64,000 bases of DNA, taken from IMG/VR virus record IMGVR_UViG_3300045988_101835. One strand, 5' to 3'. Below are positions 10,742 through 49,397 of this stretch, one piece after another. The notes under the pieces are model-generated. The model made no database searches. It was not told where the DNA came from and saw only the letters and a list, made by a program, of their open reading frames with translations. The translations under genes and the position numbers were made by a program. Position 1 is the stretch's first letter; every line of letters starts with the position of its first letter. The DNA comes from a virus.

Positions 10742-10827
10742 GCTCGGATGGTGAAATAGGTATACACGCCGGATTTAAGCTCCTGTGATCAGCAATGGTC
10801 GTGCGGGTTCGATTCCCGCTCCGAGTA
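10742..10827 (+). tRNA. tRNA-Leu (anticodon TAA)
   Basis: Hand-folded cloverleaf: acceptor GCTCGGA/TCCGAGT (G1:U72), D stem GTG/CAC, anticodon loop TTTAAGC, 17-nt variable arm, T arm GCGGG-TTCGATT-CCCGC, discriminator A. There is one C:U mismatch in the anticodon stem. Confidence 0.8.
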
Positions 10828-10847
10828 CTTTTTTTTTGCAACAAAGA

Positions 10848-10879
10848 TTTGCAACTTTAAATTAACTTTTTTATCTTTG
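10848..10879 (+). promoter_or_regulatory. Bacteroides-type promoter
   Basis: TTTG at 10848-10851, a 20-nt spacer, then TATCTTTG at 10872-10879. It directly follows the tRNA and a T9 run. Confidence 0.6.
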
Positions 10880-10903
10880 CATCAAGTAAATACTTGTGAT
10901 GGT

Positions 10904-11152
10904 ATGCTCAGAATGATTCATAGTTGGGTTAAGGTGCTTCGTGGCCTTCGTATTCGGGTCAGTGCGGGTTCTTTGCTCTTGCTCAGTTCAGCATCCCCTA
11001 TTGCTGTGGGGTCTCGAGTGTGGCATTCGGACTATGGTATCGGTGTGGTGCGTATTGTTGGGACGTGTGAGTATGTTGTTAGTTTCGAAGCTGGTTTTGA
11101 GAGTTCCACGTACAAGATGTATTGCTGCAGGGTTCTCTGTTCTTTGGGTTAA
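10904..11152 (+). CDS. small protein with Tudor/SH3-like 'HxxFGxGxV' segment
   Basis: 82-aa ORF from the first ATG. 'VWHSDYGIGVVRIV...YVVSFEAG' resembles the small beta-barrel found at UvrD/PcrA C-termini and in DUF3553-like proteins. Confidence 0.45.
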   Translation: MLRMIHSWVKVLRGLRIRVSAGSLLLLSSASPIAVGSRVWHSDYGIGVVRIVGTCEYVVSFEAGFESSTYKMYCCRVLCSLG

Positions 11153-11161
11153 TTTACATTT

Positions 11162-11245
11162 GCCGTCTTGTCGGAATTGGTAGACGAGAAGGTCTCAAAA
11201 ACCTTTGTCCTTTAGGACGTCCGGGTTCGATTCCCGGAGACGGTA
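11162..11245 (+). tRNA. tRNA-Leu (anticodon CAA)
   Basis: Acceptor GCCGTCT/AGACGGT (G1:U72), D arm TCG-GAATTGGTAGA-CGA, perfect anticodon stem AAGGT/ACCTT, loop CTCAAAA, long variable arm, T arm CCGGG-TTCGATT-CCCGG, discriminator A. It closely parallels the E. coli tRNA-Leu layout. Confidence 0.85.
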
Positions 11246-11273
11246 CGACTTCCCGACGTGGTTGCCGGGGGTC

Positions 11274-11304
11274 CCCAGCCTTGAAATGGTAGGTGCTGGG
11301 TTTT
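11274..11304 (+). terminator. weak hairpin plus T-run
   Basis: cccagc (11274-11279) pairs with gctggg (11295-11300) and is followed by tttt. Confidence 0.4.
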
Positions 11305-11789
11305 ATATTGTGCACATTCCGGTTTTAGCTTGGTTTATCCGTCCGGGTGTGGGTGCGTTGCTAGAGGAGTCTTTCCTACCGTAGGTTCCGTTTGCATAGC
11401 TGAATATCAGGCGTGGCGGCTTGGAGTAGCACGGCAACAGCTAAGTATGGGTTCTTTTGTTTTCGCTGCAGTTAACGGACATATGGTTAGTCCTTGCTGG
11501 GTTTCTTATAAAGGGATTTCTCAGGGGTAGTGCAGTGTTTAACGAAGTTTGTTTATGGGGCATTATCCGTTCGCCACTATGCTTTGGCTATAAGGATTCA
11601 TACTTTTTATACGTCTATGGTTTGTGTTCCTTGACATAGTGAAGACGGCACCGTCGAGAGTGATACTCTTTCGCTTTTAACCTTTGGAGCTCACTCATCT
11701 TTTTCTTCAGGCAATTCCTTGTGCATGTTCTGGATTTAGCCTGTCACTCTCACTTGTTAGTGGCGTGTGCTGTCTTCACCTTTTTTTTT
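11305..11789 (+). ncRNA. candidate structured non-coding RNA (family unknown)
   Basis: About 480 nt without a convincing ORF. The 3' part is closed by a 13-bp long-range helix, gtgaagacggcac (11639-11651) with gtgctgtcttcac (11767-11779), followed by T9. Confidence 0.35.
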
Positions 11790-11914
11790 CAGTGGGACCT
11801 GCCTGAAAGTAGAGTAGGGTGTATGTGAATCAGGGGTTCGATTCCTTATACCGACTAAGTTCGTCGCTGGTTGGTGCTGGTTTGCAATATAGTGCCTTCG
11901 GGGTCCTTCTTGTT

Positions 11915-12002
11915 GGAGAGTTGGCGGAGTTGGTCTAACGCGCCTGCCTACTAATCAGGTGTCCGGGTTTCCGGGCCGGGAGTTCGAATCTCTCACTCTC
12001 CG
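11915..12002 (+). tRNA. type-II tRNA, Ser-like, anticodon ACT (A34)
   Basis: Perfect acceptor GGAGAGT/ACTCTCC, D stem GCG/CGC, anticodon stem CCTGC/TCAGG (C31:U39 mismatch), loop CTACTAA, 18-nt variable arm with a 5-bp stem, T arm GGGAG-TTCGAAT-CTCTC, discriminator G. Confidence 0.75.
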
Positions 12003-12271
12003 CGCCGAGTTGTTTCCGGTTGTGCTCTGAATTTAACTGGCGTCGTTCCCGAACGTATCGGGGGATGGTTGAGGTGATACCATCAGAAATCACCTGCGGG
12101 CAGACGCGTATTTGTAGGAGTTGACTTGCGTCTATATCAGCAGGCTGCGGTTAAGATGTATGAGTTCACCGCTACGGTTGACTGTATTAAAACTCTATTC
12201 ATCGGTGCTTGTTAAGCGCGCAATGACAGGCATGACGTCCCTATCTGCAGTGGCGTGCGTAGGGCTTTTTA

Positions 12272-12356
12272 GGAAAGTTGGCAGAGTGGTCGATTGCGCT
12301 GGTCTAGAAAACCAGTGATCCTTTAGGATTCGGGAGTTCGAATCTCTCACTTTCCG
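12272..12356 (+). tRNA. type-II tRNA, Ser-like, anticodon AGA (A34)
   Basis: Perfect acceptor GGAAAGT/ACTTTCC, D stem GCA/TGC, perfect anticodon stem CTGGT/ACCAG, loop CTAGAAA, 16-nt variable arm, T arm GGGAG-TTCGAAT-CTCTC, discriminator G. Confidence 0.8.
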
Positions 12357-13044
12357 CCGCCCCTCCGGTTGTTAGACCTAATTGGAAGTCGACTAAGATT
12401 AGGTTGAGGCAACAGTTGTCTCACTTGCGTTTGCTTAAGTGTGGCAATGAGAGGGTCCCATAGAGGGGTATACTCTTAAGATGTCGATGTAGGCTCTTGT
12501 GATGACGTCGGCAATCCTACGTAGATGCTTAGGAGAGGATACCGGATGGATTCGGTTCCGCCTTTCGGAGGTTGCAAACGATGATTGGTATGGGCTGATG
12601 TATTCCGAGGTTCGAGTCCTCCCTCTATACAATTTAAGCTTGGTTCTTTTTTACATGGAGGGTTTCCTGCATTTTCTAGGCTGGCCCGAAGCCTACTTCG
12701 AAGAAACCACCGACGCGCAAGGTGAGGGGCTACGGAGGATAGTAGACGGGGTGAAATTCCGCCGTCGAAGCCGATGGAACCGGATGCAGATACGGATAAG
12801 GCGTGCGTTCCTTTTGCGAGGTTCGGCGTTTCTGCTACGCTCGTATTCGAGTACGGTACCTTCGAGGTACCGTTTCTTGCCATCCCCTTTTTGGCTGGTT
12901 AGGGTGAAGATCAGTCCGGTGCTGGTACGAGAAGTCAGCAGCAGCCCGTGACGGCTATATTGTTGCGGCGCGGTGAAGCTGTCCGATGTGGGAAATTCGG
13001 AGATCAGCGGGATGTCCTATTCTAGATGTGGGTGTCTGACATTA
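12357..13044 (+). ncRNA. candidate large structured non-coding RNA (family unknown)
   Basis: About 690 nt with only mutually overlapping low-complexity ORFs on both strands. Dense local helices include 12467-12480/12528-12543, 12745-12749/12762-12766 and 12853-12861/12865-12873. A tRNA-like T arm sits at 12606-12622. The tract ends at a strong terminator. Confidence 0.4.
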
Positions 13045-16992: not shown

Positions 16993-19900
16993 ATGGGTGA
17001 TTTTTATACTCATGTTGTAGCGATCGATGATGATTCGATTGGTACGGCTCCGGAGTCCACGGGTGTTCGCCGTGTTGGTGACTCTGTTAGTTCGTTCCTG
17101 CAGGTGGAGTCGGGTGCTTCGCGTCGTGTTACGGACGCGCGTCGTGGTGGTTTCACTGATGGGGAGATTCACAAGGTGGCTTGTAGTCTTTGCAGCATGT
17201 CGCGTGGCAGTCGCCGTGCGTCTTTGGCTAAGATGAGCGCTCCTTTGCGTCGTCGTCTTCTTGCGGAGGGTAAGCGCATTCAGTCTGTTGTTGCGGATTC
17301 GTTTATCGAGTACACGCCGGAGGTTTGCTGGGCCATCAATGACATTATAGAGAATGACTCGTCTGCGGGTTATGACATCTTGAAGTCTAAGTACCGTTCT
17401 TTGCCGCCGGAGGTTAAGACGTTCTATGACGAGTTTTTGAAGAACCGTTACTCTCCTGCTGCTGTTCGTGCTCAGGAGATGTTGGGTCCTTATCGTCTTG
17501 TTCAGGATGACGCTCGTGTGGAGGCATTCCTTGAGGGTGGTTCTACGCAGGAGGGTGCTTTGGATGAGGTTATCGAGGCGGCTTCTGTTTCTGGCGAGGA
17601 GCTGTACGAGACTACTCAGGAGAAACTTGACGAGCTTGGCGAGCGTGCTCAGTCGGCAGCTATGACTTTCATTGAGGAGGTTTCTAATATCTACGAGGAG
17701 GGCATTGCGGATGTTGTTTCGGCCCAGACGTTGGCTTCCGCCGAGGAGGCTACGGAGGATGTCTTGGAGGCACCTATTCCGGAGGAGGATGTTGATGCCC
17801 TTCCTGATCCGAATGTGGATGATACGGATGCCGGAGCTTCTTCGGAGGTTCAGGATTCTGCCGCGTCTCCGGAGTTTGTTGTTCATGGTACTATTGATCC
17901 CGTAGATGATCCCGATTGGGCGTCTAAGAGTAAAGCTACCAATTGGGATATTGTAGACCTTGCTAGTTACACTCAGCGTCAGGAGTTCTTGGGTTCGCTT
18001 GGGAAGAAGGATGCTAAGGGTCGTGATCTTTATGGTCTTCGTTACTATTCTCCCAATGGTCGCAATTCGAGTGTTGCGGAGTTGATCTTCGAGGATTACT
18101 CTCGTTTGCTTGATCGTGCTAAGGCAGCATCATCGTCTAAGCCTGTTGCCGATGACGTCGATGGCTTGGTGTTGGCTTCGGAGCTTTCCGCTCAGCCGCT
18201 GCCTGCTGCTCAGGCGGCTCCAGTTGTTGAGGGTGCTATGTCGCAGGCTGTTCCGTCCGTTCCGGTTAACGTTGGTACTACGGTTCAGGTTTCGTATTTG
18301 GGTAATGTTTATTCGGGTGTCATCACTTCTGTTGGCAATGGTGTTGCCGTCATCGAGGGTCTTCCTTTTGAGTACTTCTCCTTGCGTCAGGCCGAGGGTG
18401 CCTTCACGGGTTCTGATGATGACGTGACTTTCGCCCTTGCGGATGTCGTTCCGGTTCAGATTGTCGAGGAGACGTCTGTTGCACCTTCGTCGAATGATGC
18501 TGACGTTATTATGGCTTCGGAGGATGTTGTTGAGGGCGATGATGCTCCGATAAGTGCGCCGGAGGAGACTCAGGTTACGGAGGATGAGATTATCGAGGAT
18601 TCTGCTTCAGAGGAGTCTTCTAAGCTGATGGGTCGCATTCTTAATGCCTACTTGGACCGGGGTGCTGCTGACGAGTTCGACGTCTATTTGACGGACGATA
18701 AGAGTGGTGGTCCTCGCCTGCATATCGTGTGCGGGGATGATTCGCTTCATGCTTCTATTTTCTATCGTGGTAATCGTGGCTGGAATAAGGTTTATACCTT
18801 CGAGTCGGATGACGCTGCTATTGAGGCTGTCGAAGAGCTGACGGACGATGTTCTTGCGAAGCTTCCCGGCGTCATGGCGGAGCCTGTAGATGCTTCTGCT
18901 CTGCTGTTCGATAGTGTTCGTGACGATGTCGATCCTGCTGTTGTTTCGGAGTTCGAGTCTGTCGTGGGTCCTGAGATTCTCAACGACGTTGCTCCGCTTA
19001 TTCATGTAGTTCATACGACCGAGGATGATGTTGTTCGACGGAGTGTATGGTCTTCGTTGAAGTCCATTGCGGAGGATATTATTCTGGACTTTGGTGACAC
19101 TTTGGGTGGGTTGTCTGTAGGTGATATCTTGTCTATCTTCAATAGTCACAAGTTTTCTACGCCGTGGGGTGCTGTTGTAGACTCTGCTGTTTCGGATGCT
19201 GCCGTTAACTTCACGGTCGATCAAATTATGACGGCTTTGCGCAATGGGGTTGACATTGCTAATGCGGATGATTCTGTATCTATCGTTTTTGATGATGGTG
19301 ATGGTCTTGGTGATGTATTCGTATTCACCACGCCGTCGGGGTCGGTTGTTAAGGATGGCTCCGAGGCTGTTGCTTACTTGTCGGATCATCTTGCTGAGTT
19401 TAAGGACGCTATTTCGAATTCCTATGACGATATTTCAAAGGCTTTGGCTTCTGCGGGGTCCCCTACAGGCGAGGTTCCTGTGGAGGATGCGGAAGGCGAT
19501 GTTTCTCCTGAAGTTGTGGTTGAAGATGCACCGCATGCCGTAGACGAGACTTCCGATCCTGCAGCTATTGACTGGGGTGCTGTGGCTTTGGTTCTGAAGG
19601 ACTGGGGTCTTGCTAATTGCTTCACTTTGGCTCAGACGCCCGATCAGACTCATTTGGTTTCCGCTGCGGAGGCTTTGGCTTCGGCATTGTCTTCGGATAC
19701 CCGTCTGGAGACTCGTCTTGATGCTTCTGTTCCTCGTATTCTTTGCAAGGATCAACGGTTTATTGACATCAAGGCCGATGGTGTCTATGTAGGCACTACG
19801 TTGTTTGTTTACCAGACTGCCGATGATGCTATTGTTACCTTCGCGTCTACCATGTCGAATGCTGCTATTCAGCTTGCTCATAAGATTTACGATGCTACGG

Positions 19901-20655
19901 CTTCGGATGTTGTTGCTGAGGTTGCGAATGAGTTATCGGAGGAAGAGGAGATCGCTCTGCTGCAGGATTCTTTGGAGACGGTTCGTTCGAAGGCTGATTG
20001 GAAGGATCGCCCGTGGGCACAGCATGCATCTTTCCTCCAGAAGTACCCGCGTCTTCGTATGGTGATTGATGACGAGAGTATCTTGTCGGACGCCGCTAAG
20101 CAGGAGGTTCTGCGGTCTATCGAGAACGAGATTTCGGAGGCTTTGAAGTCTAAGAACATTTTGATTGAGGATTCTGCGTCTCTGGCGATTGATCCGGATA
20201 AGGTGAAGGATAGTGCTCCTAACACTTTGGACATTCCTCATACGGCTTCGACTTATCATCGTGTTCGCAATACCCGGAAGGTTCTGGATTCGGTTCTTTC
20301 TGTTGCTTCTGAGATCATGGGCGAGCGCATTAGTGCCGCTAACTACAAGAGTCTCTGCAAGTCTTCGAGTAAGGCCGCTAAGGCGAAGGTTCAGCGTGTT
20401 GTGGATACCGCCGTTGTTATGAACGAGTTGGACTTGATTTGTCCTGACTTATACAAGCGCAAGTTAACGGATTCCTATTGGGTTTGCGACAATGCATCGC
20501 GTGTTTCGGATTCGTTCAAGCTGAATGCTTCGTTTGCTGCGGGTCACGGTTGCTTGGTGTCTAATGCTCCGTTGGATGCGGACGTTGTTGCGGACCGGGA
20601 GGTTTCGAGCTTCAAGCTCAAGAATGGCTCTGAGCTTCACGTGGTTTTAGTTTAA
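16993..20655 (+). CDS. large acidic hypothetical protein (1220 aa)
   Basis: Long uninterrupted ORF, rich in Asp/Glu/Ser/Ala. No motif recognised. Confidence 0.65.
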   Translation: MGDFYTHVVAIDDDSIGTAPESTGVRRVGDSVSSFLQVESGASRRVTDARRGGFTDGEIHKVACSLCSMSRGSRRASLAKMSAPLRRRLLAEGKRIQSVVADSFIEYTPEVCWAINDIIENDSSAGYDILKSKYRSLPPEVKTFYDEFLKNRYSPAAVRAQEMLGPYRLVQDDARVEAFLEGGSTQEGALDEVIEAASVSGEELYETTQEKLDELGERAQSAAMTFIEEVSNIYEEGIADVVSAQTLASAEEATEDVLEAPIPEEDVDALPDPNVDDTDAGASSEVQDSAASPEFVVHGTIDPVDDPDWASKSKATNWDIVDLASYTQRQEFLGSLGKKDAKGRDLYGLRYYSPNGRNSSVAELIFEDYSRLLDRAKAASSSKPVADDVDGLVLASELSAQPLPAAQAAPVVEGAMSQAVPSVPVNVGTTVQVSYLGNVYSGVITSVGNGVAVIEGLPFEYFSLRQAEGAFTGSDDDVTFALADVVPVQIVEETSVAPSSNDADVIMASEDVVEGDDAPISAPEETQVTEDEIIEDSASEESSKLMGRILNAYLDRGAADEFDVYLTDDKSGGPRLHIVCGDDSLHASIFYRGNRGWNKVYTFESDDAAIEAVEELTDDVLAKLPGVMAEPVDASALLFDSVRDDVDPAVVSEFESVVGPEILNDVAPLIHVVHTTEDDVVRRSVWSSLKSIAEDIILDFGDTLGGLSVGDILSIFNSHKFSTPWGAVVDSAVSDAAVNFTVDQIMTALRNGVDIANADDSVSIVFDDGDGLGDVFVFTTPSGSVVKDGSEAVAYLSDHLAEFKDAISNSYDDISKALASAGSPTGEVPVEDAEGDVSPEVVVEDAPHAVDETSDPAAIDWGAVALVLKDWGLANCFTLAQTPDQTHLVSAAEALASALSSDTRLETRLDASVPRILCKDQRFIDIKADGVYVGTTLFVYQTADDAIVTFASTMSNAAIQLAHKIYDATASDVVAEVANELSEEEEIALLQDSLETVRSKADWKDRPWAQHASFLQKYPRLRMVIDDESILSDAAKQEVLRSIENEISEALKSKNILIEDSASLAIDPDKVKDSAPNTLDIPHTASTYHRVRNTRKVLDSVLSVASEIMGERISAANYKSLCKSSSKAAKAKVQRVVDTAVVMNELDLICPDLYKRKLTDSYWVCDNASRVSDSFKLNASFAAGHGCLVSNAPLDADVVADREVSSFKLKNGSELHVVLV

Positions 20656-21823: not shown

Positions 21824-23815
21824 ATGTTGTGGGGCACTTTTAATGGGTACAAGGTTGGCTTGGTTCAGAGTCTGTCGGATTTGGATTACATCCGGGCAGA
21901 TTTGCATGCCAATATAGTGGCTGGTTTGGATTCGGAGACGACGAGCTTATCTTTTGTTCACGGTCGAGTGGTAGGGGTATGTATCGCTACGGGTAAGACT
22001 TACAGCAAGGATGACTACTGTGGTTATTACATTCCGATTCGTCATGTGGGCTATCACGCCAATCTTCCGGTTGACCTTGTTATTGCTTTCGTGCAGTATG
22101 TCGTCGATAATTATATGACGATGTGGTGGAACCGGAGTTTCGACTTTTCTATGTTGGAGCTTGACGGGTTCAAGGCACCTTTTGTTGGTAAGACTCATGA
22201 CGTCCAGTTCATGGCGCATGAGATTTTCAATGAGCGTTATCCTAAGCTGAAGGTCTTTGCTAAGCGTCTTTTTGGGTTTAAGACTATCGACTTCGAGGAT
22301 AATAATGCGGTTAATGGTAACTTCGGCTCACTCGACCCGGAGGTCTCTTTCATCTATGCTGCTGCCGACCCTCTCATCACGACACTGTGTGGTCTCCGTA
22401 TTTGGAGTGACTATCCTCATATTCGTCAAATTTACCCGCTGGATAACGAGTCCGGTGAGGCTGTTCGTCGCTTGGCTAAGGCGGATATCCTTCTTGATTA
22501 TGATTTCTTGGATCAGGAGGTCATTCGCACTTCTGCCCGCATGGAGGATGTCCGGCAGCGTATCTATCAGCTTGTGGGCTACGTTTTCAACATCAGTAGT
22601 GAGGATGACAAGGCGGATGCCTTGAGCCGCTTTGTCACGTTGACGGTCCGTACTAAGAGTGGCAAGTTCAAGACGGATAAGAATGTCTTGGCGACGATAG
22701 ATCATCCGTTAGCTAAGCTTATGCTGGAGTATAATGCCTTGAGCACTTACTTGAAGTCTTTCGTTTCCAAGATGGTTTCGTGGCGTCATCGTCAGATTCC
22801 GGTTCATATTAATTATAACCTTGTCGTGGCGTTGACGGGTCGTATGAGTAGCTCCGGGTCGGAGGGTAATGACTTCTACGTTCCTTTTAATGGCCAGAAC
22901 TGTGTTCGTGGTTCTAATACTACAGTTTTCACTCGTTCCGGGTCCAAGTTGATTTCGGAGGTTGTTGTTGGTGACGAGGTTTGGGATGGCGATGCTTTTC
23001 GGCGCGTGTCTGCGGTTTTGGATCAGGGTGTGCGTGAGATTTACCGTTTGACTTTGGAGGATGGTCGTTTCTTGGACGCGACATCAGATCACCCGGTTCT
23101 CACGGCTTCGGGGTTCCACGAGGTTTCTACGTTACTCGGGGTCGATGTTTTGGTGAGTGAGAACCCTCATGTTTTCCTGACTGGTGTAGATTGTGGTCCC
23201 GCTAGGTACTTATGTAGGGTTGTGTCGATCCACCCTATTGGCTATGATCGTGTTTATGACATTACGGTCGATGTATCAGAGCGTTTTGTGGCCAACGGTA
23301 TTATAGTTCATAATTGCCCGAAGGTTTCTTTGAAGATGTATTTGCATACAGATCCTCTTATAGGCTACTGTTTGAAGCATGAGGCGGAGGGTGCTGTGTG
23401 TGATGAGTCGGGCAAGCCTATTAAGTATAAGACGAAGGGAGGACTTCGTGATGCCTTCTTGGCCAACCCGCCGGGGGAGGATGACTGGGTAATGGTTGGC
23501 AACGATTATTGTATTCATCCGGATACATTAGTATCGACACCTTCGGGAGATGTTCGAATAGGTGATATGGTTGGTTGTGAGTTCGAGGTTTCTACGCCTT
23601 ATGGTCCTTGCGTTGCTTCTAATGTTCACCATACTGGTCGTCGCAAGCAGTATCGTATAGAGTTGTCGGACGGTGCGGTTCTGGTTTGCTCTCCAGATCA
23701 TCGTTTGTGGGTGTGTCGTGATGACGTAGATATGTGGGTTAAGGCTTCTGAGCTTTTGAGTAGTGATTATATTTACACTCAGTCTGATGTTACTTATCCG
23801 GAGATTGTGAGCTAG
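21824..23815 (+). CDS. family-A DNA polymerase, N-terminal part (3'-5' exonuclease through motif A) with one complete and one half intein
   Basis: Exo I 'GLDSETTSL'. 'TGRMSSS...NGQN' corresponds to Pol I TGRLSS..NLQN. 'GNDY' is the start of motif A (DYSQIELR). The ORF ends inside an intein N-domain. Confidence 0.85.
   Translation: MLWGTFNGYKVGLVQSLSDLDYIRADLHANIVAGLDSETTSLSFVHGRVVGVCIATGKTYSKDDYCGYYIPIRHVGYHANLPVDLVIAFVQYVVDNYMTMWWNRSFDFSMLELDGFKAPFVGKTHDVQFMAHEIFNERYPKLKVFAKRLFGFKTIDFEDNNAVNGNFGSLDPEVSFIYAAADPLITTLCGLRIWSDYPHIRQIYPLDNESGEAVRRLAKADILLDYDFLDQEVIRTSARMEDVRQRIYQLVGYVFNISSEDDKADALSRFVTLTVRTKSGKFKTDKNVLATIDHPLAKLMLEYNALSTYLKSFVSKMVSWRHRQIPVHINYNLVVALTGRMSSSGSEGNDFYVPFNGQNCVRGSNTTVFTRSGSKLISEVVVGDEVWDGDAFRRVSAVLDQGVREIYRLTLEDGRFLDATSDHPVLTASGFHEVSTLLGVDVLVSENPHVFLTGVDCGPARYLCRVVSIHPIGYDRVYDITVDVSERFVANGIIVHNCPKVSLKMYLHTDPLIGYCLKHEAEGAVCDESGKPIKYKTKGGLRDAFLANPPGEDDWVMVGNDYCIHPDTLVSTPSGDVRIGDMVGCEFEVSTPYGPCVASNVHHTGRRKQYRIELSDGAVLVCSPDHRLWVCRDDVDMWVKASELLSSDYIYTQSDVTYPEIVS
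22901..23314 (+). other. mini-intein 1 (138 aa) inserted after the Pol I ...QN motif
   Basis: Cys1 'CVRGSNTTVF', block B 'LDATSDHPVLT', blocks F/G 'VYDITVDVSERFVANGIIVHN', followed by +1 Cys. No endonuclease domain. Confidence 0.8.
23510..23812 (+). other. split-intein N-fragment (101 aa) at PolA motif A
   Basis: 'DY|CIHPDTLVSTPSGDVRIGDM' (block A) and 'LVCSPDHRLWV' (block B). The ORF stops with TAG at 23813. Confidence 0.7.
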
Positions 23816-23818
23816 TGT

Positions 23819-23935
23819 ATGGGACGCGCTTCTAATATAAAATCCATTTCGGTATTACAGGATGAAGTTGACATGATTGACTTCTCTGTTGCGGGTGCTC
23901 ATTGCTACTATGCCAATGGTATGTTGGTCCATAAC
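23819..23935 (+). other. split-intein C-fragment (39 aa)
   Basis: 'MGRASNIKSISVLQDEVDMIDFSVAGAHCYYANGMLVHN', followed by +1 Cys. Blocks F/G are present. Confidence 0.7.
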
Positions 23936-26743
23936 TGCTCTGAGGAAATCGCCCTTGTAGCTAACATGTCCCGTGAGGAGGGTTTCTTGTATCCGCTGCG
24001 TCATGATCTCGATGTCCATATGTACGTTGCGGAGACGCGCTTCCATGTTTCGGACCCTGAGTTTCGTGATAAGTCTAAAGCTGTCTCGTTCGGTAAGATT
24101 TACGGTGGTGGTCCTACGATGATCGCTAACCGACTTGGTATTTCGAAGCAGGAGGCCAATAAGATCATCTATGACTACGATACGGGTATGCCTGTTTTTG
24201 CTAGGTGGCAGAAGGCTTTGCAGAAGCAGGCAAAACGTACGGGTTTTGCTAAGACGTTCTTTGGGCGCACTATTTACTTGGCTCGGTGGTTTAATTCTCC
24301 GGATAACGGATTGCGCGCTTATGCTGACCGAGTTGCTCTCAACAGTCCAATTCAGGGTCCCACGCCCCCTAACACTCTGATTTTGACCACTTTAGGCTAT
24401 GTTCCTATTAAGCATTTATATACCTTAGATGTTGCAGGGCAGCTTGCTCCATATGGTGTTAAGTGTTGGAATGGTGTTCGATGGTGCGATTTTCATGTTG
24501 TTGATGCGGGGTTAGGTGATATCCTTCGTTTTAAGTTCAAGCGTGGCAACTATGTTGACGTTGACGTTCGCCATCAGTTTAAGGTTTGGACTTCGGATGG
24601 GTGTGTTTTTGAGGATGCTACTAAGTTGTCGGTTGGGGATCGTGTTGCGGGGTCTTTGTGCCGTCGCCTTGAGTTCCCGGCACTGACGTTCTGTTGTTCT
24701 TCACAGTCGCGGTTGAAGGGTCTGCTTATCTCTCATTCTCCCCGTACCCTTTCCTACGAGGATAGCGTGACTTTGATGTGGTGGGTCGGTTATGCTTTAG
24801 GTGATGGTAACTTTAGTACGCCTAATGCTATTCGGTTTACATTAGGGGCTACGGAGACTTTCCGGTATGACGATGCTTCGGCTTTCTTTCCGTCTATTGG
24901 TTGTACGGTTGGTAAGTTGAATCATTGTACGGCAGATATGCCGGGGCGTAAGGGTGAGTGTTACACGTTCGTTGTGTATGGTGTCGATGTTATGCGGTGC
25001 TTGCGGCGCTTGGGTCTTGATTTTCGTTGGCGTCATCACACTAAGCGCATTCCGTGGCGACTGTGTTGTTCGTCTATTGCCCAGCGCAAGGCTTTGGTTG
25101 ATGGATTGTTTGCTTCAGATGGCTGTAAGACAGAGGAACAGTTCATGTGGCATATGTGCCAGTCGGACATTCTTCGTGACTTGCAGCGGTTGCTTCGGAC
25201 TTTAGGGTTTGATAGTACTTTGTATGCTGCGCCAGATGGTAAGTCCTATCGCTTGGTTGTGTGTGCGACTCAGGATTTCGCTCGGTTTATGGGTTATCCT
25301 TTGAAGGAGCAAGCGGGTCGTATTGGTCCGGGTCGCTGGAATGATCGTCGGATGGTTCCGTCGGTTTTGTGCCAGCGGTTTGTCTCTTGGCAGCAATCGC
25401 ACGGAGGTCCGTCGCCTGATCTGCCCTCTAAGCGTCGCCAGTCGGATATGGCATTAATGAGTCGCCTTCGTCATGGTGGTTCTGTTTCGTTTTCGACTTT
25501 CGAGAGCTTGGCTTCGGATTATGGCTATACGGAGTATCAGACGTGGGATGACTATCTGGAGGCTCAGGAGATCGTTGATATTGTTTCTTTGCCGCCGGAG
25601 AACTGCTATTGCCTTTCGTTGGATGATGAAAGCCATTGCTACGACACGGATGGTCTTATTTCTCATAATTGTTTACCTCGGTCCTTGTATTCGCCGTCGC
25701 AGGATGGTAAGGTTTATTCTCCGTGGCAGTCGTTCGTCGGCCACCGTATGACTTTCCAGACTCGGTCGGACGGCGCACGTGTTGGCGTTCCTACGTTCCG
25801 GGGTGAGCACGACCTTCATGTTGCTTTGTTCGATACGGGTGACTTCTGTGTTTGCAATCTGGGTCATAAGTTCGTTAAGTATGGTACGGATCGCGTCTTG
25901 CTTGGTTTGGATGAGATAGGTACTGCGCCTGTTGCTTTGATTCCGCCTATGCGCAAGAGTAAGTGGGGCTGGTTGAAGGGCTTGTTTAGTAGCCATAAGT
26001 GGACTTTGGAGTCGCTTCTTGCGCATGGTAAGATGGGCCGTGACATCCGCACGGACGATTGGGCTGTCTGCTGGTGTATGCTGAAGGCATTTATGACGCG
26101 AAAACGGGTCCATACGCGGTCGATGTTATCCGCAATGATCCTACGGTCCATCTGCGATCTTTTCGGCTGGAATTTGGTCTACGATTTGCGCCATTCGGTT
26201 GTTGATGATTATGCTTTCAAGTTACGGTGGGGTCGTCGGCGTAAGGGTCACGCTATTTTCGCCACGGAACTTGGAATTCGGGATAACGTTATTTCTCCGT
26301 CCATGTCTTCGGGCCTTCAGACTTACCCGTTGTGTGGCTTCATTCATAAGAACACGGGTGGTGACTTGATTCGCCGTGACTTGGTTAAGTTCGAGCGTTT
26401 GAATGATCTGCTCCCGGAGTGGCGTGAGAACGTCCGCTTCGTGGTTACGGTTCACGATGAGGTCCAGTTCCGTGTTCGCCGTAAGTATTTGTTCAAGGCT
26501 ATTCCTATCATCCAGAAGGTCATGAACTTCTGGCCTAAGAATTTTGAGACTCCGGTTGTTGTTGAGCCGGGTGTTGGTTTCCGCTGGGGCGGTGAGCTTG
26601 ATATTGACGCTGTTCTGGATGACGGTCGTATTGTTCCTAAAGGTTACATGCCGCCGCCGGAGTACTTCGAGGGCCACGAGGTCTATTGGCTTCGTTCGTG
26701 GAAGGAGGAAGAGGAGAAGAAGCGTGGTTTGTCTAAGAAGTGA
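23819..26743 (+). CDS. family-A DNA polymerase, C-terminal part (motifs A-rest, B, C) with intein insertions
   Basis: After 'VHN' the sequence 'CSEEIALVANMS' completes motif A. Motif B is 'KSKAVSFGKIYGG', 'NSPIQG' ... 'TGGDLIRR' corresponds to Pol I PMQGTAADIIK, and motif C is 'VTVHDEVQF'. Confidence 0.85.
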   Translation: MGRASNIKSISVLQDEVDMIDFSVAGAHCYYANGMLVHNCSEEIALVANMSREEGFLYPLRHDLDVHMYVAETRFHVSDPEFRDKSKAVSFGKIYGGGPTMIANRLGISKQEANKIIYDYDTGMPVFARWQKALQKQAKRTGFAKTFFGRTIYLARWFNSPDNGLRAYADRVALNSPIQGPTPPNTLILTTLGYVPIKHLYTLDVAGQLAPYGVKCWNGVRWCDFHVVDAGLGDILRFKFKRGNYVDVDVRHQFKVWTSDGCVFEDATKLSVGDRVAGSLCRRLEFPALTFCCSSQSRLKGLLISHSPRTLSYEDSVTLMWWVGYALGDGNFSTPNAIRFTLGATETFRYDDASAFFPSIGCTVGKLNHCTADMPGRKGECYTFVVYGVDVMRCLRRLGLDFRWRHHTKRIPWRLCCSSIAQRKALVDGLFASDGCKTEEQFMWHMCQSDILRDLQRLLRTLGFDSTLYAAPDGKSYRLVVCATQDFARFMGYPLKEQAGRIGPGRWNDRRMVPSVLCQRFVSWQQSHGGPSPDLPSKRRQSDMALMSRLRHGGSVSFSTFESLASDYGYTEYQTWDDYLEAQEIVDIVSLPPENCYCLSLDDESHCYDTDGLISHNCLPRSLYSPSQDGKVYSPWQSFVGHRMTFQTRSDGARVGVPTFRGEHDLHVALFDTGDFCVCNLGHKFVKYGTDRVLLGLDEIGTAPVALIPPMRKSKWGWLKGLFSSHKWTLESLLAHGKMGRDIRTDDWAVCWCMLKAFMTRKRVHTRSMLSAMILRSICDLFGWNLVYDLRHSVVDDYAFKLRWGRRRKGHAIFATELGIRDNVISPSMSSGLQTYPLCGFIHKNTGGDLIRRDLVKFERLNDLLPEWRENVRFVVTVHDEVQFRVRRKYLFKAIPIIQKVMNFWPKNFETPVVVEPGVGFRWGGELDIDAVLDDGRIVPKGYMPPPEYFEGHEVYWLRSWKEEEEKKRGLSKK
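24359..25669 (+). other. intein 3 (437 aa) with LAGLIDADG homing-endonuclease domain; no N-terminal nucleophile (Pro1)
   Basis: Begins right after 'PIQG' with a block-A-like 'PTPPNTLILTTLGYVPIKHL'. Block B is 'VDVRHQFKVW'. LAGLIDADG motifs are 'WWVGYALGDGNF' and 'ALVDGLFASDGC'. Blocks F/G are 'NCYCLSLDDESHCYDTDGLISHN', followed by Cys. Confidence 0.6.
25670..26353 (+). other. intein-like insertion 4 (228 aa), directly abutting intein 3
   Basis: Cys1 'CLPRSLYSPSQDGKVYS' (block-A spacing), 'CNLGHKFVKY' (block-B-like), ending '...LCGFIHKN' before the +1 Thr of 'TGGDLIRR'. The penultimate residue is Lys, not His. Confidence 0.45.
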
Positions 26744-27571: not shown

Positions 27572-28750
27572 ATGAAGAAGACATTCAAATATCGCATCTA
27601 CCCGAACAAAGCCCAGCAGGCTTTGTTACAGGCGACGTTTGGATGCTGCCGCTTCGTTTACAACAAAACGCTTGATATTAGGAAGACGGCTTACGAGACC
27701 GACAAGATGAAGCTTAGTAAGTTCGATTGCATCAATCGGATGACTGCGTTGAAGGATGAGTATACGTGGTTGCGTGCCGTTCCTGCGGTTTGCTTGGTTC
27801 AGGCTGTTGACAACATGGATACAGCCTACCAAAACTTCTTCAAATCTGGTAAAGGTTATCCGAAGTTTAAGTCGAAGCATCGTAGCCGTAAGTCCTGTAA
27901 GTTTATGGTGCCTAAGTGTGTTGTATTGCAAGATATTAGTCGTTTAAAGCTTTCTAAGTTAGGGTTAGTCAAGTACAAGAAAGACCGGGAGTTCGTTGGC
28001 GCTTTGCGTCACATTGTGGTTACACAAGAAAACGATGGTAAGTACTACGCGTCGTGCTTGGTGGAGACGGGCGTTGAAGCACCTAAGCCAAAGCCCGTTG
28101 ATGATAGCACAACGGTCGGCATTGACTTGGGGCTGAAAGACTTTATCGTCACGTCCGACGGGCGCAAGATACCTAACCCGCGCTTTTATGCTACTATTGA
28201 CCGACGCATAGCTAGGTTACAGAAGCATGAAGCACGAAAGACGAAAGGCTCGAAGCGTCGTGCCCGCATTCGCTTAAAGATTAACAAACTTTATATCAAG
28301 AAGCAAAACTTAATTAAGAATTATATTTACCATGCCGTCAAGACGTTACTGCGTGAGAGTCAAACGATAGTAATGGAGAATCTTAATGTTGGCGGCATGG
28401 TTAAGAATCATAGTTTAGCTAAATCCATACAGAACATTTGCTGGGGTGAACTTCGCAGAGTGTTAGAGTATAAGTCTCAATGGCTTGGTCATAACCTTAT
28501 TTTCATAGATCGTTGGGCACCGAGTACGAAGACTTGTAGTTGTTGCGGCTTTAAGAATGATATATTAACACTTTCAGATCGTTCGTGGACATGTCCGGGT
28601 TGTGGTACGCATCACGACAGAGATGTTAACGCTGCCCTCAACATTAAGCGTATGGGTTTAGAAAAGTTATTGCCTACGGTGAGTGGGTTCGACGGACGTG
28701 GAGAGATCGGTTACGATCTCGACGAAGCGTCAATATGTGCAAGTTATTAA
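27572..28750 (+). CDS. tnpB: TnpB (OrfB) RNA-guided nuclease family protein
   Basis: N-terminal 'YRIYPNKAQQALLQATFGCCRFVYN', RuvC-I 'GIDLGLKDF', RuvC-II 'VMENLN', zinc finger 'CSCCG...CPGCG', RuvC-III 'HHDRDVNAALNI'. Confidence 0.9.
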   Translation: MKKTFKYRIYPNKAQQALLQATFGCCRFVYNKTLDIRKTAYETDKMKLSKFDCINRMTALKDEYTWLRAVPAVCLVQAVDNMDTAYQNFFKSGKGYPKFKSKHRSRKSCKFMVPKCVVLQDISRLKLSKLGLVKYKKDREFVGALRHIVVTQENDGKYYASCLVETGVEAPKPKPVDDSTTVGIDLGLKDFIVTSDGRKIPNPRFYATIDRRIARLQKHEARKTKGSKRRARIRLKINKLYIKKQNLIKNYIYHAVKTLLRESQTIVMENLNVGGMVKNHSLAKSIQNICWGELRRVLEYKSQWLGHNLIFIDRWAPSTKTCSCCGFKNDILTLSDRSWTCPGCGTHHDRDVNAALNIKRMGLEKLLPTVSGFDGRGEIGYDLDEASICASY

Positions 28751-28856: not shown

Positions 28857-29192
28857 ATGCCTAAGCGTAAGATTTCCGTCGGCTCTTATGTCTATTTGCC
28901 GCTTCCGGGTATTCAGAGTTGTTCTTTAGGAGTTTGTGCTCGTGTCGTCTTGTTGTACTCCACTCCTTGTGAGGAGTGCGTTGCCGTTGGGGATCGTTAT
29001 TATGATCCTGTTTCGGGTGAGTCGGGCGACCTGTCTTCTCATTCGCATATTGTAGTTCGTCCTGCGAGTTACTTGACGGGATATGGCCTTGAGGATTGCC
29101 AGCAAGTTGTTGCGATCTTTTCGCGGAGCATGATAAGCCCTACGAAGCCGTCTCCGTCTATTGTTCGTTTAGCACGTTATGCAGGAGTCTAG
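28857..29192 (+). CDS. hypothetical early protein
   Basis: First ATG downstream of the promoter. The track start at 28818 falls at or before the expected transcription start. Confidence 0.5.
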   Translation: MPKRKISVGSYVYLPLPGIQSCSLGVCARVVLLYSTPCEECVAVGDRYYDPVSGESGDLSSHSHIVVRPASYLTGYGLEDCQQVVAIFSRSMISPTKPSPSIVRLARYAGV

Positions 29193-48139: not shown

Positions 48140-49397
48140 GGTGATTATATGCAACTTTATATCATCGTTTGCAGTAAATGTAAAATAATTGTAATTTTCA
48201 GACATGAAGAAAGCATTCAAATATCGCATCTACCCGAACAAGGCTCAGCGGGCTTTGTTTCAGGCGACGTTTGGATGTTGCCGTTTCGTTTACAACAAAA
48301 CGCTTGATATCAGAAAGACAGCTTATGCGATGGATAAGACGCAGCTTAGCGAGTTTGATCTCATCAAGAAAATAAAGCCGCTTAAAGAAGAGTTCCCGTG
48401 GCTGCGTGACGTTCCAGCGGTTTGCTTACCTCAAGCAGTTGGTGATATGAATGATGCTTTCCGTGATTTCTTTAAGTCGGGTAAGGGTTACCCTAAGTTC
48501 AAGACGAAGCATCGTAGTCGGAAGTCTTGTCGTTTTCCCGGCCAGAGTTGTGCAGTGTTGCAAGACATTAGTCGCTTAAAGCTTCCCAAGCTTGGTTTAG
48601 TTAAGTACAAGAAAGATCGTGAGTTCATTGGCACTTTACGGCATATAGTGATTACGCAAGAAAGTAATGGCAAGTATTATGCTTCGTGCTTGGTTGATAC
48701 GGGCGTCGAAGCACCGAATCCGAAGCCAGTAGAAGCTAGTACGACGGTCGGCATTGACTTGGGGCTTAAAGACTTTATCGTCACGTCGGATGGGTGTAAG
48801 ATGCCCAATCCACGTTTTTATGTTACTATCGACCACTCCATCGCCCGCTTGCAGAAGCACGAAGCGCGGAAGATGAAAGGATCGAAGCGTCGTGCGCGCA
48901 TTCGGTTAAAGATTAACAAACTTTACAGTAAGAAACGGAATTTAATCAAGAATTATATTTATCATGTCGTCAAGACATTACTGCGCGAAAGCCAAACGCT
49001 AGTAATGGAGAACCTTAACATTGTTGGCATGGTAAAGAATCATAGTTTAGCTAAATCCATCCAGAATGTTTGCTGGGGTGAGCTTCGCAGAGTACTGGAG
49101 TACAAGTCGCAGTGGTTGGGTCACAACTTAATCTTCATAGATAGGTGGGCGCCTAGTACGAAGACTTGCAGCCATTGCGGGTTCCATAATTCTACGTTAA
49201 CGCTTTCAGATCGTTCATGGACATGTCCGGGGTGTGGTACACATCACGACCGGGACATCAACGCCGCGATTAACATTAAACGTATGGGTTTAGAGACATT
49301 ACTGCCCGCGGTGAGCGGGTTCGACGGGCGTGGAGAGGTCGGTTACGGTCTCGACGAAGCGTCAATATGTGCAAGTTATTAACTGCATGTAATCACC
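48140..49397 (+). mobile_element. TnpB-only insertion element, copy 3
   Basis: Ends ggtgattatatgcaact and aactgcatgtaatcacc are 14/17 inverted repeats. The element is flanked on both sides by tcccaa (48134-48139 and 49398-49403). Confidence 0.8.
48204..49382 (+). CDS. tnpB: TnpB family protein
   Basis: GIDLGLKDF, VMENLN, CSHCG...CPGCG, HHDRDINAAINI. Confidence 0.9.
   Translation: MKKAFKYRIYPNKAQRALFQATFGCCRFVYNKTLDIRKTAYAMDKTQLSEFDLIKKIKPLKEEFPWLRDVPAVCLPQAVGDMNDAFRDFFKSGKGYPKFKTKHRSRKSCRFPGQSCAVLQDISRLKLPKLGLVKYKKDREFIGTLRHIVITQESNGKYYASCLVDTGVEAPNPKPVEASTTVGIDLGLKDFIVTSDGCKMPNPRFYVTIDHSIARLQKHEARKMKGSKRRARIRLKINKLYSKKRNLIKNYIYHVVKTLLRESQTLVMENLNIVGMVKNHSLAKSIQNVCWGELRRVLEYKSQWLGHNLIFIDRWAPSTKTCSHCGFHNSTLTLSDRSWTCPGCGTHHDRDINAAINIKRMGLETLLPAVSGFDGRGEVGYGLDEASICASY

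Follow-up and report, generated by a model that had tools for sequence, protein, structure and literature searches.

In the window, by which we mean the whole 64,000-nt stretch of virus DNA analysed here, the gene of a family A DNA polymerase (PolA) is broken inside motif A by a stop codon and an immediate restart, and the residues around the break resemble the two halves of an intein. This raises the question whether the polymerase is made as two chains that a split intein would join, or whether a contiguous intein lies behind a stop codon that is read through, erroneous, or newly mutated. We consider it highly probable (roughly 0.85) that the locus encodes a genuine, evolutionarily maintained, naturally split class 1 intein in a family A DNA polymerase of an uncultivated gut phage. 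Sequence matches, the predicted structure, and comparison with relatives all support this reading of motif A as the site of a natural split intein.

The polA locus is broken at motif A

The features of the locus are as follows (a slash marks a splice site).
21824..23815 (+): PolA N-terminal gene from the ORF list, 663 aa, stop TAG; 3'-5' exonuclease domain, polymerase domain up to the motif A Asp-Tyr, a cis mini-intein, and the terminal IntN
23498..23509 (+): first half of motif A (G-N-D-Y), the last N-extein sequence; aligns to "sadY" of Klenow DYSQIELR
23504-23506 (+): catalytic Asp codon of motif A, inside the PolA N-terminal gene
23510..23812 (+): IntN, the N-half of the split intein, 101 aa; starts with Cys1, block A CIHPDT, block B CSPDHRLWV
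23813..23815 (+): TAG stop of the IntN polypeptide; TAG or TAA in the same alignment column of relatives
23816..23818 (+): TGT, the 3-nt spacer, in frame with TAG and ATG
23819..23935 (+): IntC, the C-half of the split intein, 39 aa; own ATG, blocks F and G, His-Asn end
23936..23971 (+): +1 Cys (23936-23938) and the remaining motif A (CSEEIALVANMS), the first C-extein residues; aligns to SQIELRIMAHLS of Klenow
23819..26743 (+): PolA C-terminal gene, 974 aa; IntC, then fingers and palm with motifs B and C, and two further tandem inteins

The ORF at 21824-23815 ends with ...VMVGNDY/CIHPDTLV...TYPEIVS followed by TAG, and it matched the Pfam families DNA_pol_A, DNA_pol_A_exo1, and Intein_splicing. 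The ORF at 23819-26743 starts with MGRASNIK...ANGMLVHN/CSEEIALVANMS and matched DNA_pol_A (116 bits) and LAGLIDADG_3. The break point in PolA is between the Tyr and the Cys of motif A (DY/CSEE). The earlier note, made from the sequence alone, had described halves of 101 and 39 aa on adjacent ORFs, and both were found (IntN at 23510-23812, IntC at 23819-23935), as was the TAG-TGT-ATG in one frame at 23813-23821. The ORF list and the Klenow alignment also agreed with its placing of the catalytic Asp on one ORF and of motifs B and C on the other, and excision in silico restored motif A relative to Klenow, which bore out its reading that the second ORF completes this motif.

The fused halves resemble a class 1 intein in sequence and predicted fold

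When IntN and IntC were fused in silico, they scored 47.4 bits (E 2.4e-12) against Pfam Intein_splicing (PF14890), for which the curated cut-off is 35.8 bits, and the top PDB sequence match was the gp41-1 intein, end to end, with an E value of 2e-8. The AlphaFold model of the fused halves, built with a 32-sequence alignment from which fused halves of the relatives' loci were left out, predicted a HINT fold with a pLDDT of 93.6 and a pTM of 0.87; prediction from the single sequence gave a pLDDT of 36, and the model with the alignment was the one used. Its confidence dipped only at residues 91-110, which is the split loop. The top 50 Foldseek matches were inteins and related HINT domains (TM about 0.65-0.84), with gp41-1, NrdJ-1, Npu DnaE, and Aes123 PolB1 among them. 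Both the Pfam match and the modelled fold are those of a HINT domain, and the resemblance goes beyond chance.

The residues expected of a class 1 intein were all found. The block A nucleophile is Cys1 in CIHPDT, directly after the Asp-Tyr, and it was invariant in 7 loci and in 32/32 aligned inteins. Block B (CSPDHRLWV) contains S-P-D-H, in agreement with the Thr/Ser-x-x-His pattern, and its His was invariant in the same 7 loci and 32 inteins. The C-terminal end ...MLVHN/C has the His-Asn pair followed by Cys as the +1 Cys/Ser/Thr residue; H-N-C was invariant in the 7 loci and the Asn in the 32 inteins.

Removal of all inteins in silico gave a 694-aa PolA that aligned to the Klenow fragment at the junction without a gap ("vgndy-cseeialvanms" against "vsadysqielrimahls"), and the expected ligated junction peptide is ...VMVGNDY-CSEEIALVANMSR. 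An intein-free allele at the motif A site was found in L001, L002, L051, L052, and L093. The precise absence was measured for L001, a relative with 99% identity to the window: exactly these 426 nt are missing, and the sequence there is VGNDY/ASEEIALVANMS. The +1 residue is Ala in the intein-free allele and Cys in the window.

The split is shared by relatives and both halves are conserved

The same TAG-TGT-ATG, within an identical 33-nt junction, was found in four independent assemblies from other studies (L047-L050), and a separately called N-half (P0002) had the same last residue as the window IntN. Several public assemblies had the N-half and the C-half called as separate genes, and in the first protein search a homologous IntC opened nine public gene calls. 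A further protein search gave about 1050 metagenomic proteins with E <= 0.001. Relatives at about 50-60% identity carry the break in the same loop, and among them two end with TAA, three restart in another frame, and the spacers are 9-74 nt. The junctions of individual relatives were as follows.
L004: TAG +9 nt, same frame
L038: TAG +27 nt, second in-frame TAG
L039: TAA +71 nt, frame +2
L040: TAA +74 nt, frame +2
L043: TAG +44 nt, frame +2
L003: TAG +615 nt, further in-frame stops (a second TAG, then TGA)
L044: N-half stop TAA
L054: TAA, 736-nt gap

The halves are therefore on separate ORFs both in the window, with TAG at 23813 and ATG at 23819, and in the relatives, with spacers of 9-736 nt, and IntC has kept its own ATG in every relative. 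The break is also at the canonical site: the 101/39 division aligns with the split-site loop of gp41-1, as the earlier note had supposed, this loop is the sole one of low confidence in the model, and the endonuclease genes of relatives are located there. Given the identical junctions and the relatives with TAA or a changed frame, the arrangement cannot be based on read-through, a sequencing error, or a recent nonsense mutation, and the sequence comparison indicates that the split is real and old.

Both halves appear to have been kept functional. Besides the invariant splicing residues (Cys1, block B His, His-Asn end, and +1 Cys in all 7 loci), the dN/dS of IntN was 0.18 and 0.11, which indicates that IntN is under purifying selection since the split. 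The dN/dS of IntC was 0.55 (window/L003 pair) and 0.25, values that come from very few substitutions in 37-39 codons.

Megablast of the polA locus against GenBank phages gave no match, and the best protein-level matches were gut "Bacteriophage sp." contigs with only about 34% identity, which meant that the locus had no annotated relative. Elsewhere in the window, PHROG scans of ten large proteins identified a helicase, a methyltransferase, a tail fibre, and a transposase.

Stop codon usage and alternative explanations

The TAG might be read through or recoded, giving one precursor with a 142-aa mini-intein that would splice in cis. Stop and restart indeed share the frame in the window, L004, and L047-L050, distant PolAs carry contiguous mini-inteins with a similar loop length at the site, and a shared frame across TAG also occurs in several other long ORF pairs of the window (8 long pairs are in frame across a stop, 6/8 across TAG). 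We nevertheless regard this as very unlikely. TAG is the commonest stop in this phage (32/53 gene calls), ORFs of 1220, 1347, and 1454 aa run without any TAG, and no suppressor was among the 4 tRNAs found in the 64 kb, out of a genome of approximately 83-87 kb; reassignment of TAG to sense was rejected on these and the following grounds. Relatives with the same split use TAA, shift the frame, or carry extra stops in the spacer, the IntC of every relative retains its ATG, and about a third of tightly packed genes are expected to be in frame with a neighbour anyway. TAG-N(1-9)-ATG junctions are the norm in this phage, and in-frame TAG-NNN-ATG was also found at two other gene boundaries (that at 29192/29196 was covered only by the near-identical L001). 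Because TAG is so common a stop, such boundaries recur, relatives change frame or use TAA, and no suppressor tRNA was found among the 4, the in-frame layout is, as far as sequence can tell, incidental gene packing and not a signature of read-through. Low-level read-through could still be a minor route to a 142-aa contiguous intein, which would probably splice in cis because the loops of contiguous relatives are similar in length. No clear Shine-Dalgarno sequence was found before the IntC ATG, and the same was true of nearly all genes of this phage.

It is extremely unlikely that the TAG arose by an error of sequencing or assembly, or that a contiguous mini-intein acquired it very recently by nonsense mutation. 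One base change in the TAG would fuse both ORFs in frame, but the 33-nt junction is identical in the four independent assemblies, P0002 ends at the same residue, the split is common to relatives at about 50-60% identity, and IntN appears to have been under purifying selection since the split. The earlier note had held read-through or a very recent nonsense mutation to be an equally simple explanation, which the junctions of L047-L050 and the stops of the relatives do not support, and the four assemblies likewise answer the objection of an assembly or sequencing error that it had raised. A different possibility is that the halves no longer splice, so that PolA would be a decaying pseudogene or the intein halves would act only as a non-covalent dimerisation module. 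Divergent relatives all have the same residues at the positions that serve only splicing (Cys1, block B His, His-Asn, and +1 Cys), the active site would have about 140 additional residues between the Asp-Tyr and the remainder of motif A, and the extein dN/dS of 0.03-0.2 means that the gene is not decaying. These points make loss of splicing very unlikely, even though, according to background cited in PMC2677866, some phage polymerases and reductases exist as fragments that assemble without splicing.

Other inteins in polA

The polA of the window contains four inteins in all, and the three apart from the split intein are listed here.
22901..23314 (+): intein 1, contiguous mini-intein, 138 aa, at FNGQN/CPK (PNLQN/IP-like motif); Pfam Intein_splicing 45.4 bits
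24359..25669 (+): intein 3, 437 aa, with a LAGLIDADG endonuclease domain, after NSPIQG; Pfam LAGLIDADG_3
25670..26353 (+): intein 4, divergent HINT-like insert, 228 aa, CLPRS...FIHKN/TGGD

Intein 1 is missing from near-identical relatives, with precise absence in L001, L004, and P0002. Intein 3, which is missing in P0001, L004, and P0013, has Pro as its first residue and ends with SHN, and the first Cys of intein 4 is in its +1 position. Intein 4 was found in every clade member seen that covers the site. A Pfam search of intein 4 gave no match; its N-terminal 74 residues aligned to an intein profile (hhalign probability 77%, E 2e-5), and its removal restored NSPIQG-TGGDLIRR, which matches NAPMQGTAADIIKR of Klenow.

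Proposed mechanism of PolA assembly

With a naturally split intein as the preferred reading, PolA would be made as two polypeptides from adjacent genes, which are probably translationally coupled. In PolA-N, the 101-aa IntN would follow the exonuclease domain and the part of the polymerase that ends with the motif A Asp-Tyr; PolA-C would begin with the 39-aa IntC, followed by the remainder of motif A and by motifs B and C. From this layout, the active site is predicted to require joining of the two chains after translation. By analogy with the established split-intein pathway, IntN and IntC would associate into one HINT domain, a thioester would form between Cys1 and the preceding Tyr, and the N-extein would be transferred to the +1 Cys. 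The terminal Asn would then cyclise and release the intein, and an S-to-N shift would leave a normal Tyr-Cys peptide bond in a continuous motif A (D-Y-C-S-E-E). The 694-aa enzyme would also require cis splicing of the three further inteins.

Endonuclease genes and origin of the split

The earlier note had suggested comparing homologous polymerases, and both contiguous and split forms were found, together with the intein-free allele. It had also asked about a homing endonuclease at the site: none is present at the split site of the window, where the halves are only 3 nt apart, and relatives have a LAGLIDADG gene or its remnants exactly there. L044/L045 have an intact 276-aa endonuclease gene between the halves (PHROG 4645, E 2e-25), and in L054 the gene is broken in two, with two LAGLIDADG motifs. 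L003 retains a 110-aa C-terminal endonuclease remnant, identified through PHROGs and pairwise comparison with the intact L044 gene (39% identity to the L044 protein, E 9e-23); this remnant had no PDB sequence match and no tblastn match in phages. The relatives' endonuclease was recognised by its LAGLIDADG motifs and PHROG 4645, with a weak match to Pfam LAGLIDADG_3, and a hairpin is located at its start. A DNA alignment of the window with both ends of the L003 insert showed that "TGTATGGG" at the window spacer matches L003 around the IntC start, and its L003 counterpart falls within the 3' end of the endonuclease ORF. For the L003 insert and the window junction, Rfam gave no support for a group I or II intron, and this reading was rejected.

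The likely origin suggested by these sequences is invasion by an endonuclease gene followed by its loss. A contiguous mini-intein would have been invaded by a free-standing LAGLIDADG homing-endonuclease gene, which would have supplied the stop and the new start; its later loss would have left TAG-TGT-ATG, and the in-frame layout would be a by-product of tight gene packing. Contiguous homologues of the split intein were found at the same DY/C site in the metagenomic PolAs P0013, P0019, P0017, and P0033, with loops similar in length to that of the window. Three PolA clades were seen, with inteins only about 35-38% identical to that of the window. Two clades have both forms (contiguous P0013 vs P0109/L044, and contiguous P0017 vs P0060/P0124/L046), and the window clade has split forms only, plus the intein-free allele. 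Whether one intein family at this PolA site has switched repeatedly among contiguous, endonuclease-fractured, and endonuclease-less split states is a tentative idea that we consider rather doubtful. Splitting may be reversible in nature, because the TAG-TGT-ATG of the window is a single substitution from a re-fused 142-aa contiguous mini-intein. The endonuclease-less split intein may also spread laterally; the intein dS of L038 vs L039 was 0.09-0.42, and that of the flanking exteins was 1.7-2.7.

Comparison with known systems

The closest solved relative by sequence is gp41-1 (E 2e-8; PDB 6qaz, 6riz), which comes from cyanophage-like ocean metagenomes. The structural likeness is a TM of 0.75-0.85, with a Foldseek identity of only about 27-29%. 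Both inteins are class 1 with Cys1 and a His-Asn end, are broken in the same loop, and are phage-borne in a replication protein, which is a DnaB-like helicase for gp41-1 and PolA for the window. The gp41-1 intein has 88+37 aa and Ser at +1; the window intein differs in having 101+39 aa and Cys at +1. Widely used protein-ligation tools are built on natural split inteins, of which there are few, and this Cys1/Cys+1 relative of the fast gp41-1, with its many natural variants, is a candidate for a new orthogonal pair.

Splitting of a replicative polymerase catalytic subunit by an intein is shared with cyanobacterial DnaE, Nanoarchaeum equitans PolB, and Aeromonas phage Aes123 PolB1, but these polymerases belong to family C or B and that of the window to family A. 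The DnaE and Neq PolB halves are at distant loci, whereas those of the window are 3 nt apart, and the Aes123 PolB1 intein is cysteine-less, unlike the Cys/Cys intein described here. DNA polymerase I is listed among intein hosts by Novikova et al. (2016; PMC4760082). The contiguous DNA polymerase I inteins have the same host family and splice in cis within single polypeptides, whereas the window intein is broken by a stop and restart. No split intein in PolA or another family A polymerase was found in the literature searched, an absence that is not proof of novelty. The locus stands out because, in a gene with four inteins, trans-splicing is predicted to be needed to complete the catalytic motif A of a family A replicative polymerase.

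In the fractured-gene model of Dassa et al. (2009; PMC2677866), a free-standing endonuclease gene lies between split-intein halves, and at one locus, gp41-7, the endonuclease gene has been lost. As in those fractured genes, the halves described here are on adjacent ORFs of a phage replication gene, and in the relatives an endonuclease gene separates the halves and overlaps the start of the downstream one, with a hairpin at the endonuclease start. Such a gene is found in L044/L045, L054, and L003 and is absent from the window, whose endonuclease-less state corresponds to step III of the model. The relatives' endonuclease is of the LAGLIDADG type (PHROG 4645), whereas that of Dassa et al. belongs to a Vsr-like family, and the host genes named in the accessible part of the article do not include a family A polymerase. 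Unlike the cases given there, contiguous, fractured, decayed, endonuclease-less, and intein-free states all occur at one site. The states in the relatives are exactly those that the model predicts. The window locus overturns nothing known; it is a new instance of a kind of system that is rare but already described. Its relatives form an unusually complete natural series, from intein-free through contiguous, intact LAGLIDADG fracture, and decaying endonuclease to spacers down to 3 nt. This series supports the gene-breaking model of 2009, here for an endonuclease of another family.

An intein split across two PolA genes

The two ORFs, the intein halves IntN and IntC at the DY/C site of motif A, and the in-frame TAG-TGT-ATG between them were all present in the sequence and the ORF list as the earlier note had described them (insertion sites are marked by a slash throughout).

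Features of the split polA locus
21824-23815, + strand: PolA N-half ORF, 663 aa; exonuclease domain and N-terminal polymerase part to ...WVMVGNDY, then IntN
23510-23812, + strand: IntN, 101 aa, CIHPDTLV...TYPEIVS
23813-23815, + strand: TAG stop after IntN
23816-23818, + strand: TGT spacer, 3 nt between the TAG and the ATG of IntC
23819-26743, + strand: PolA C-half ORF, 974 aa, same frame as the N-half ORF
23819-23935, + strand: IntC, 39 aa, MGRASNIK...ANGMLVHN, then CSEEIALVANMS
23936-23938, + strand: +1 Cys

When IntN and IntC were fused in silico, they scored 47.4 bits against Pfam Intein_splicing (curated cut-off 35.8), and the top match among all PDB sequences was the naturally split gp41-1 intein (6qaz, E 2.3e-8), aligned from residue 6 to the terminal Asn. 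By this alignment, gp41-1 is split in the same loop as the window intein. AlphaFold gave a pLDDT of 36 from the single sequence, and a pLDDT of 93.6 with a pTM of 0.87 from a 32-sequence alignment, its members drawn from 1.8 billion representatives scanned with HMMER; confidence of the latter model dropped only at residues 91-110, which is the split loop. The best 50 Foldseek matches in the PDB were inteins and related HINT domains (TM about 0.65-0.84), including gp41-1, NrdJ-1, Npu DnaE and the phage Aes123 PolB1 split intein. Removal of the split intein and three other inserts left a 694-aa protein, which aligned to the Klenow fragment without a gap across the site ('vgndy/cseeialvanms' against 'vsadysqielrimahls'). 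Two viral contigs with exteins 99% identical (L001 and L002) encode a single contiguous 1359-aa PolA reading VGNDY/ASEEIALVANMS, and exactly these 426 nt are missing from L001.

The alleles were also compared around the insertion site (window 23504-23509 and 23936-23956 against L001 5976-6035). The +1 codon is Cys (TGC) in the intein-bearing allele and Ala (GCG) in the intein-free one, and 5-6 differences, mostly synonymous, fall within 20 nt 3' of the site, against about 1 per 20 nt elsewhere; this cluster looks like co-conversion or target-site divergence.

The TAG as a gene boundary

The junction CCGGAGATTGTGAGC TAG TGT ATG GGACGCGCT was identical in four more metagenome assemblies from different studies, one of them labelled human gut, so the TAG is not an error of the window's assembly and that explanation was ruled out. 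The earlier note had also taken the in-frame layout as a possible sign of read-through. TAG terminates 32 of the 53 gene calls in the window (a count based on crude calls) and is absent from the interior of the 1220-, 1347- and 1454-aa ORFs; a stop followed by ATG within 1-9 nt is the usual gene junction, and in-frame TAG-NNN-ATG occurs at two other boundaries (29192/29196 and 56771/56775). No suppressor tRNA was found among the four tRNAs (Leu, Ser) in the part of the genome searched, and no Rfam intron model matched at the locus or in the insert of L003, a related locus, so the in-frame layout is ordinary gene packing. Trace read-through giving a cis-splicing precursor is possible but not needed.

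Relatives also bear on the age of the break, which the earlier note had thought might be a very recent nonsense mutation. Among public gene calls, two N-halves (P0002 and P0009) terminate in IntN and nine C-halves open with IntC. Where the intein of a relative is 49-56% identical, the end of IntN falls on the same alignment column and IntC opens with an ATG of its own, with varying junctions.

Junctions between IntN and IntC in related loci
L004: TAG, 9-nt spacer
L038: TAG, 27 nt, second TAG in frame
L043: TAG, 44 nt, frame +2
L039: TAA, 71 nt, frame +2
L040: TAA, 74 nt, frame +2
L003 (exteins 96% identical): TAG, 615 nt, second TAG and TGA in frame

Most of these junctions cannot be bridged by read-through, so the split predates the divergence of the window's clade. 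The alignment of relatives shows no variation at Cys1, at the block B His, at the terminal His-Asn or at the +1 Cys. The dN/dS was 0.18 and 0.11 for IntN, and 0.55 and 0.25 for IntC, where very few substitutions lie behind the values.

Origin of the split

The earlier note had raised two comparisons with related phages, and both were informative: a homing endonuclease does occupy the site in relatives, and the homologous polymerases include contiguous and split forms. L044 and L045, from a more distant clade, have an intact 276-aa gene of the PHROG 4645 family there (E 2.3e-25), which follows a TAA-ended IntN ORF and overlaps the IntC ORF start by 29 nt. An ORF of 110 aa in the 615-nt insert of L003 carries the motif LLGLLDSDGW. 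Its match to PHROG 4645 'endonuclease' (E 1.5e-7) is confined to the last third of the profile (positions 200-302 of 308), and the ORF is 39% identical to the C-terminal 100 residues of the L044 endonuclease (E 9e-23). In L054, IntN ends with TAA and is followed by 736 nt with two ORFs, each carrying one LAGLIDADG motif and together overlapping both intein halves. L046 has a 59-aa ORF between its halves. P0013, P0019, P0017 and P0033 carry homologous contiguous mini-inteins at the same DY/C site. The window's 'TGTATGGG' at the IntC start matches L003 sequence inside the 3' end of the endonuclease ORF.

In the gene-breaking model as outlined by Dassa et al. 2009 (PMC2677866), an endonuclease gene invades an intein, brings a stop and a new start, and may be lost later. 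The states seen among relatives are those that the model, so outlined, predicts, and the window, whose spacer is the shortest of those seen, represents the stage at which the endonuclease has been lost. For the window's own lineage we infer gain and then loss of the endonuclease; alternatively, the endonuclease gene could have invaded L003 a second time.

Stable hairpins are found in L003 (5440-5525) and L044 (3150-3230), both with z = -3.1, where the endonuclease ORF starts or immediately upstream of that point; the one in L044 sequesters both the stop codon of IntN and the ATG of the endonuclease. They resemble the translational-control hairpins of fractured genes.

Other inteins in PolA

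Other inteins in the window's PolA
22901-23314, + strand: intein 1, 138-aa cis mini-intein, FNGQN/CPK
24359-25669, + strand: intein 3, LAGLIDADG domain, begins with Pro (PTPPNTLILTT)
25670-26353, + strand: intein 4, 228 aa, CLPRS...FIHKN/T

Inteins 3 and 4 stand in tandem at NSPIQG/.../TGGD with zero extein residues between them, so that intein 3 has the first Cys of intein 4 as its +1 nucleophile. Intein 3 has a Cys at the block F position usually held by Asp, has Ser in place of Thr ahead of His-Asn and lacks an obvious Trp, a signature that is partly class-3-like. The first residue of intein 4 is always Cys in sequences that also have intein 3 (window, P0109), and either Ser (e.g. P0001, 97% identical) or Cys in those that lack it. 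Intein 4 was found in all clade members seen that cover the site, ends in Lys-Asn and not His-Asn, had no Pfam match, and aligned to an intein profile over its first 74 residues only (hhalign probability 77%). A HINT element that has diverged or degenerated, with an additional domain in its middle, is a possible reading. Inteins 1, 2 (the split one) and 3 are present or absent independently among the window, L001, L003, P0001 and P0002 (exteins 96-99% identical), and L004 and P0039 have a further intein in the exonuclease domain, which brings the intein sites in PolA of this phage group to five or more.

Phage genome and host

The window is a T-rich phage genome coding on one strand: every long ORF is on the + strand, and the strand is rich in T and G (AT skew about -0.3, GC skew about +0.15).

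Other features of the window
10742-12358: tRNA cluster, Leu(TAA), Leu(CAA), Ser(ACT), Ser(AGA)
16993-20655, + strand: very acidic 1220-aa protein, upstream of polA with two small ORFs between
27572-28750 and 48204-49382, + strand: TnpB / IS605 OrfB-like genes, 392 aa each

All four tRNAs read T/A-rich codons, consistent with the skewed composition. The acidic protein had no family match and is conserved in L001 and L039. The two TnpB-like genes share 83% identity and resemble each other upstream as well (taaaataatt), and polA is followed by one of them about 830 nt further on; such a gene also lies within about 1.3 kb downstream of polA in L003 (9227-10417) and L044 (8074-9207), and about 2.3 kb upstream in L038 (1-49). 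Close relatives come from human gut metagenomes. An intein-free polA, 99% identical, is on a contig (L093, CANQWS010000032.1) binned with an uncultured Muribaculaceae MAG, which weakly hints at a Bacteroidales host.

Proposed splicing

Because the two PolA genes are 3 nt apart, their translation may plausibly be coupled by termination-reinitiation; among the starts examined in the window, a Shine-Dalgarno pattern was absent at every gene of this phage. The halves would then presumably follow the established class-1 split-intein pathway: IntN would associate with IntC, Cys1 would undergo an N-S acyl shift, trans-thioesterification would move the N-extein onto the +1 Cys, the terminal Asn would cyclise, and an S-N shift would finish the peptide bond, giving a predicted Tyr-Cys bond within motif A.

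Comparison with known systems

Contiguous inteins are known in DNA polymerase I (PMC4760082), and no split intein in a family A polymerase turned up in our literature search. Split inteins are known both from phage replication genes (gp41, NrdJ, IMPDH, DnaE-like and TerL) and from family C and family B polymerases (cyanobacterial DnaE, N. equitans PolB and Aes123 PolB1). The endonucleases of Dassa et al. 2009 are of a Vsr-like family, whereas those of the PolA relatives are LAGLIDADG-type. What the PolA site adds is a full set of evolutionary stages at a single insertion point, contiguous and split forms side by side in two other PolA clades, and signs of recent lateral exchange of an endonuclease-less intein. 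Between L038 and L039, intein dS is 0.42 (IntN) and 0.09 (IntC) against 2.7 and 1.7 for the flanking polA exteins, which suggests, at the level of sequence, that a split intein without an endonuclease gene was recently exchanged between these lineages.
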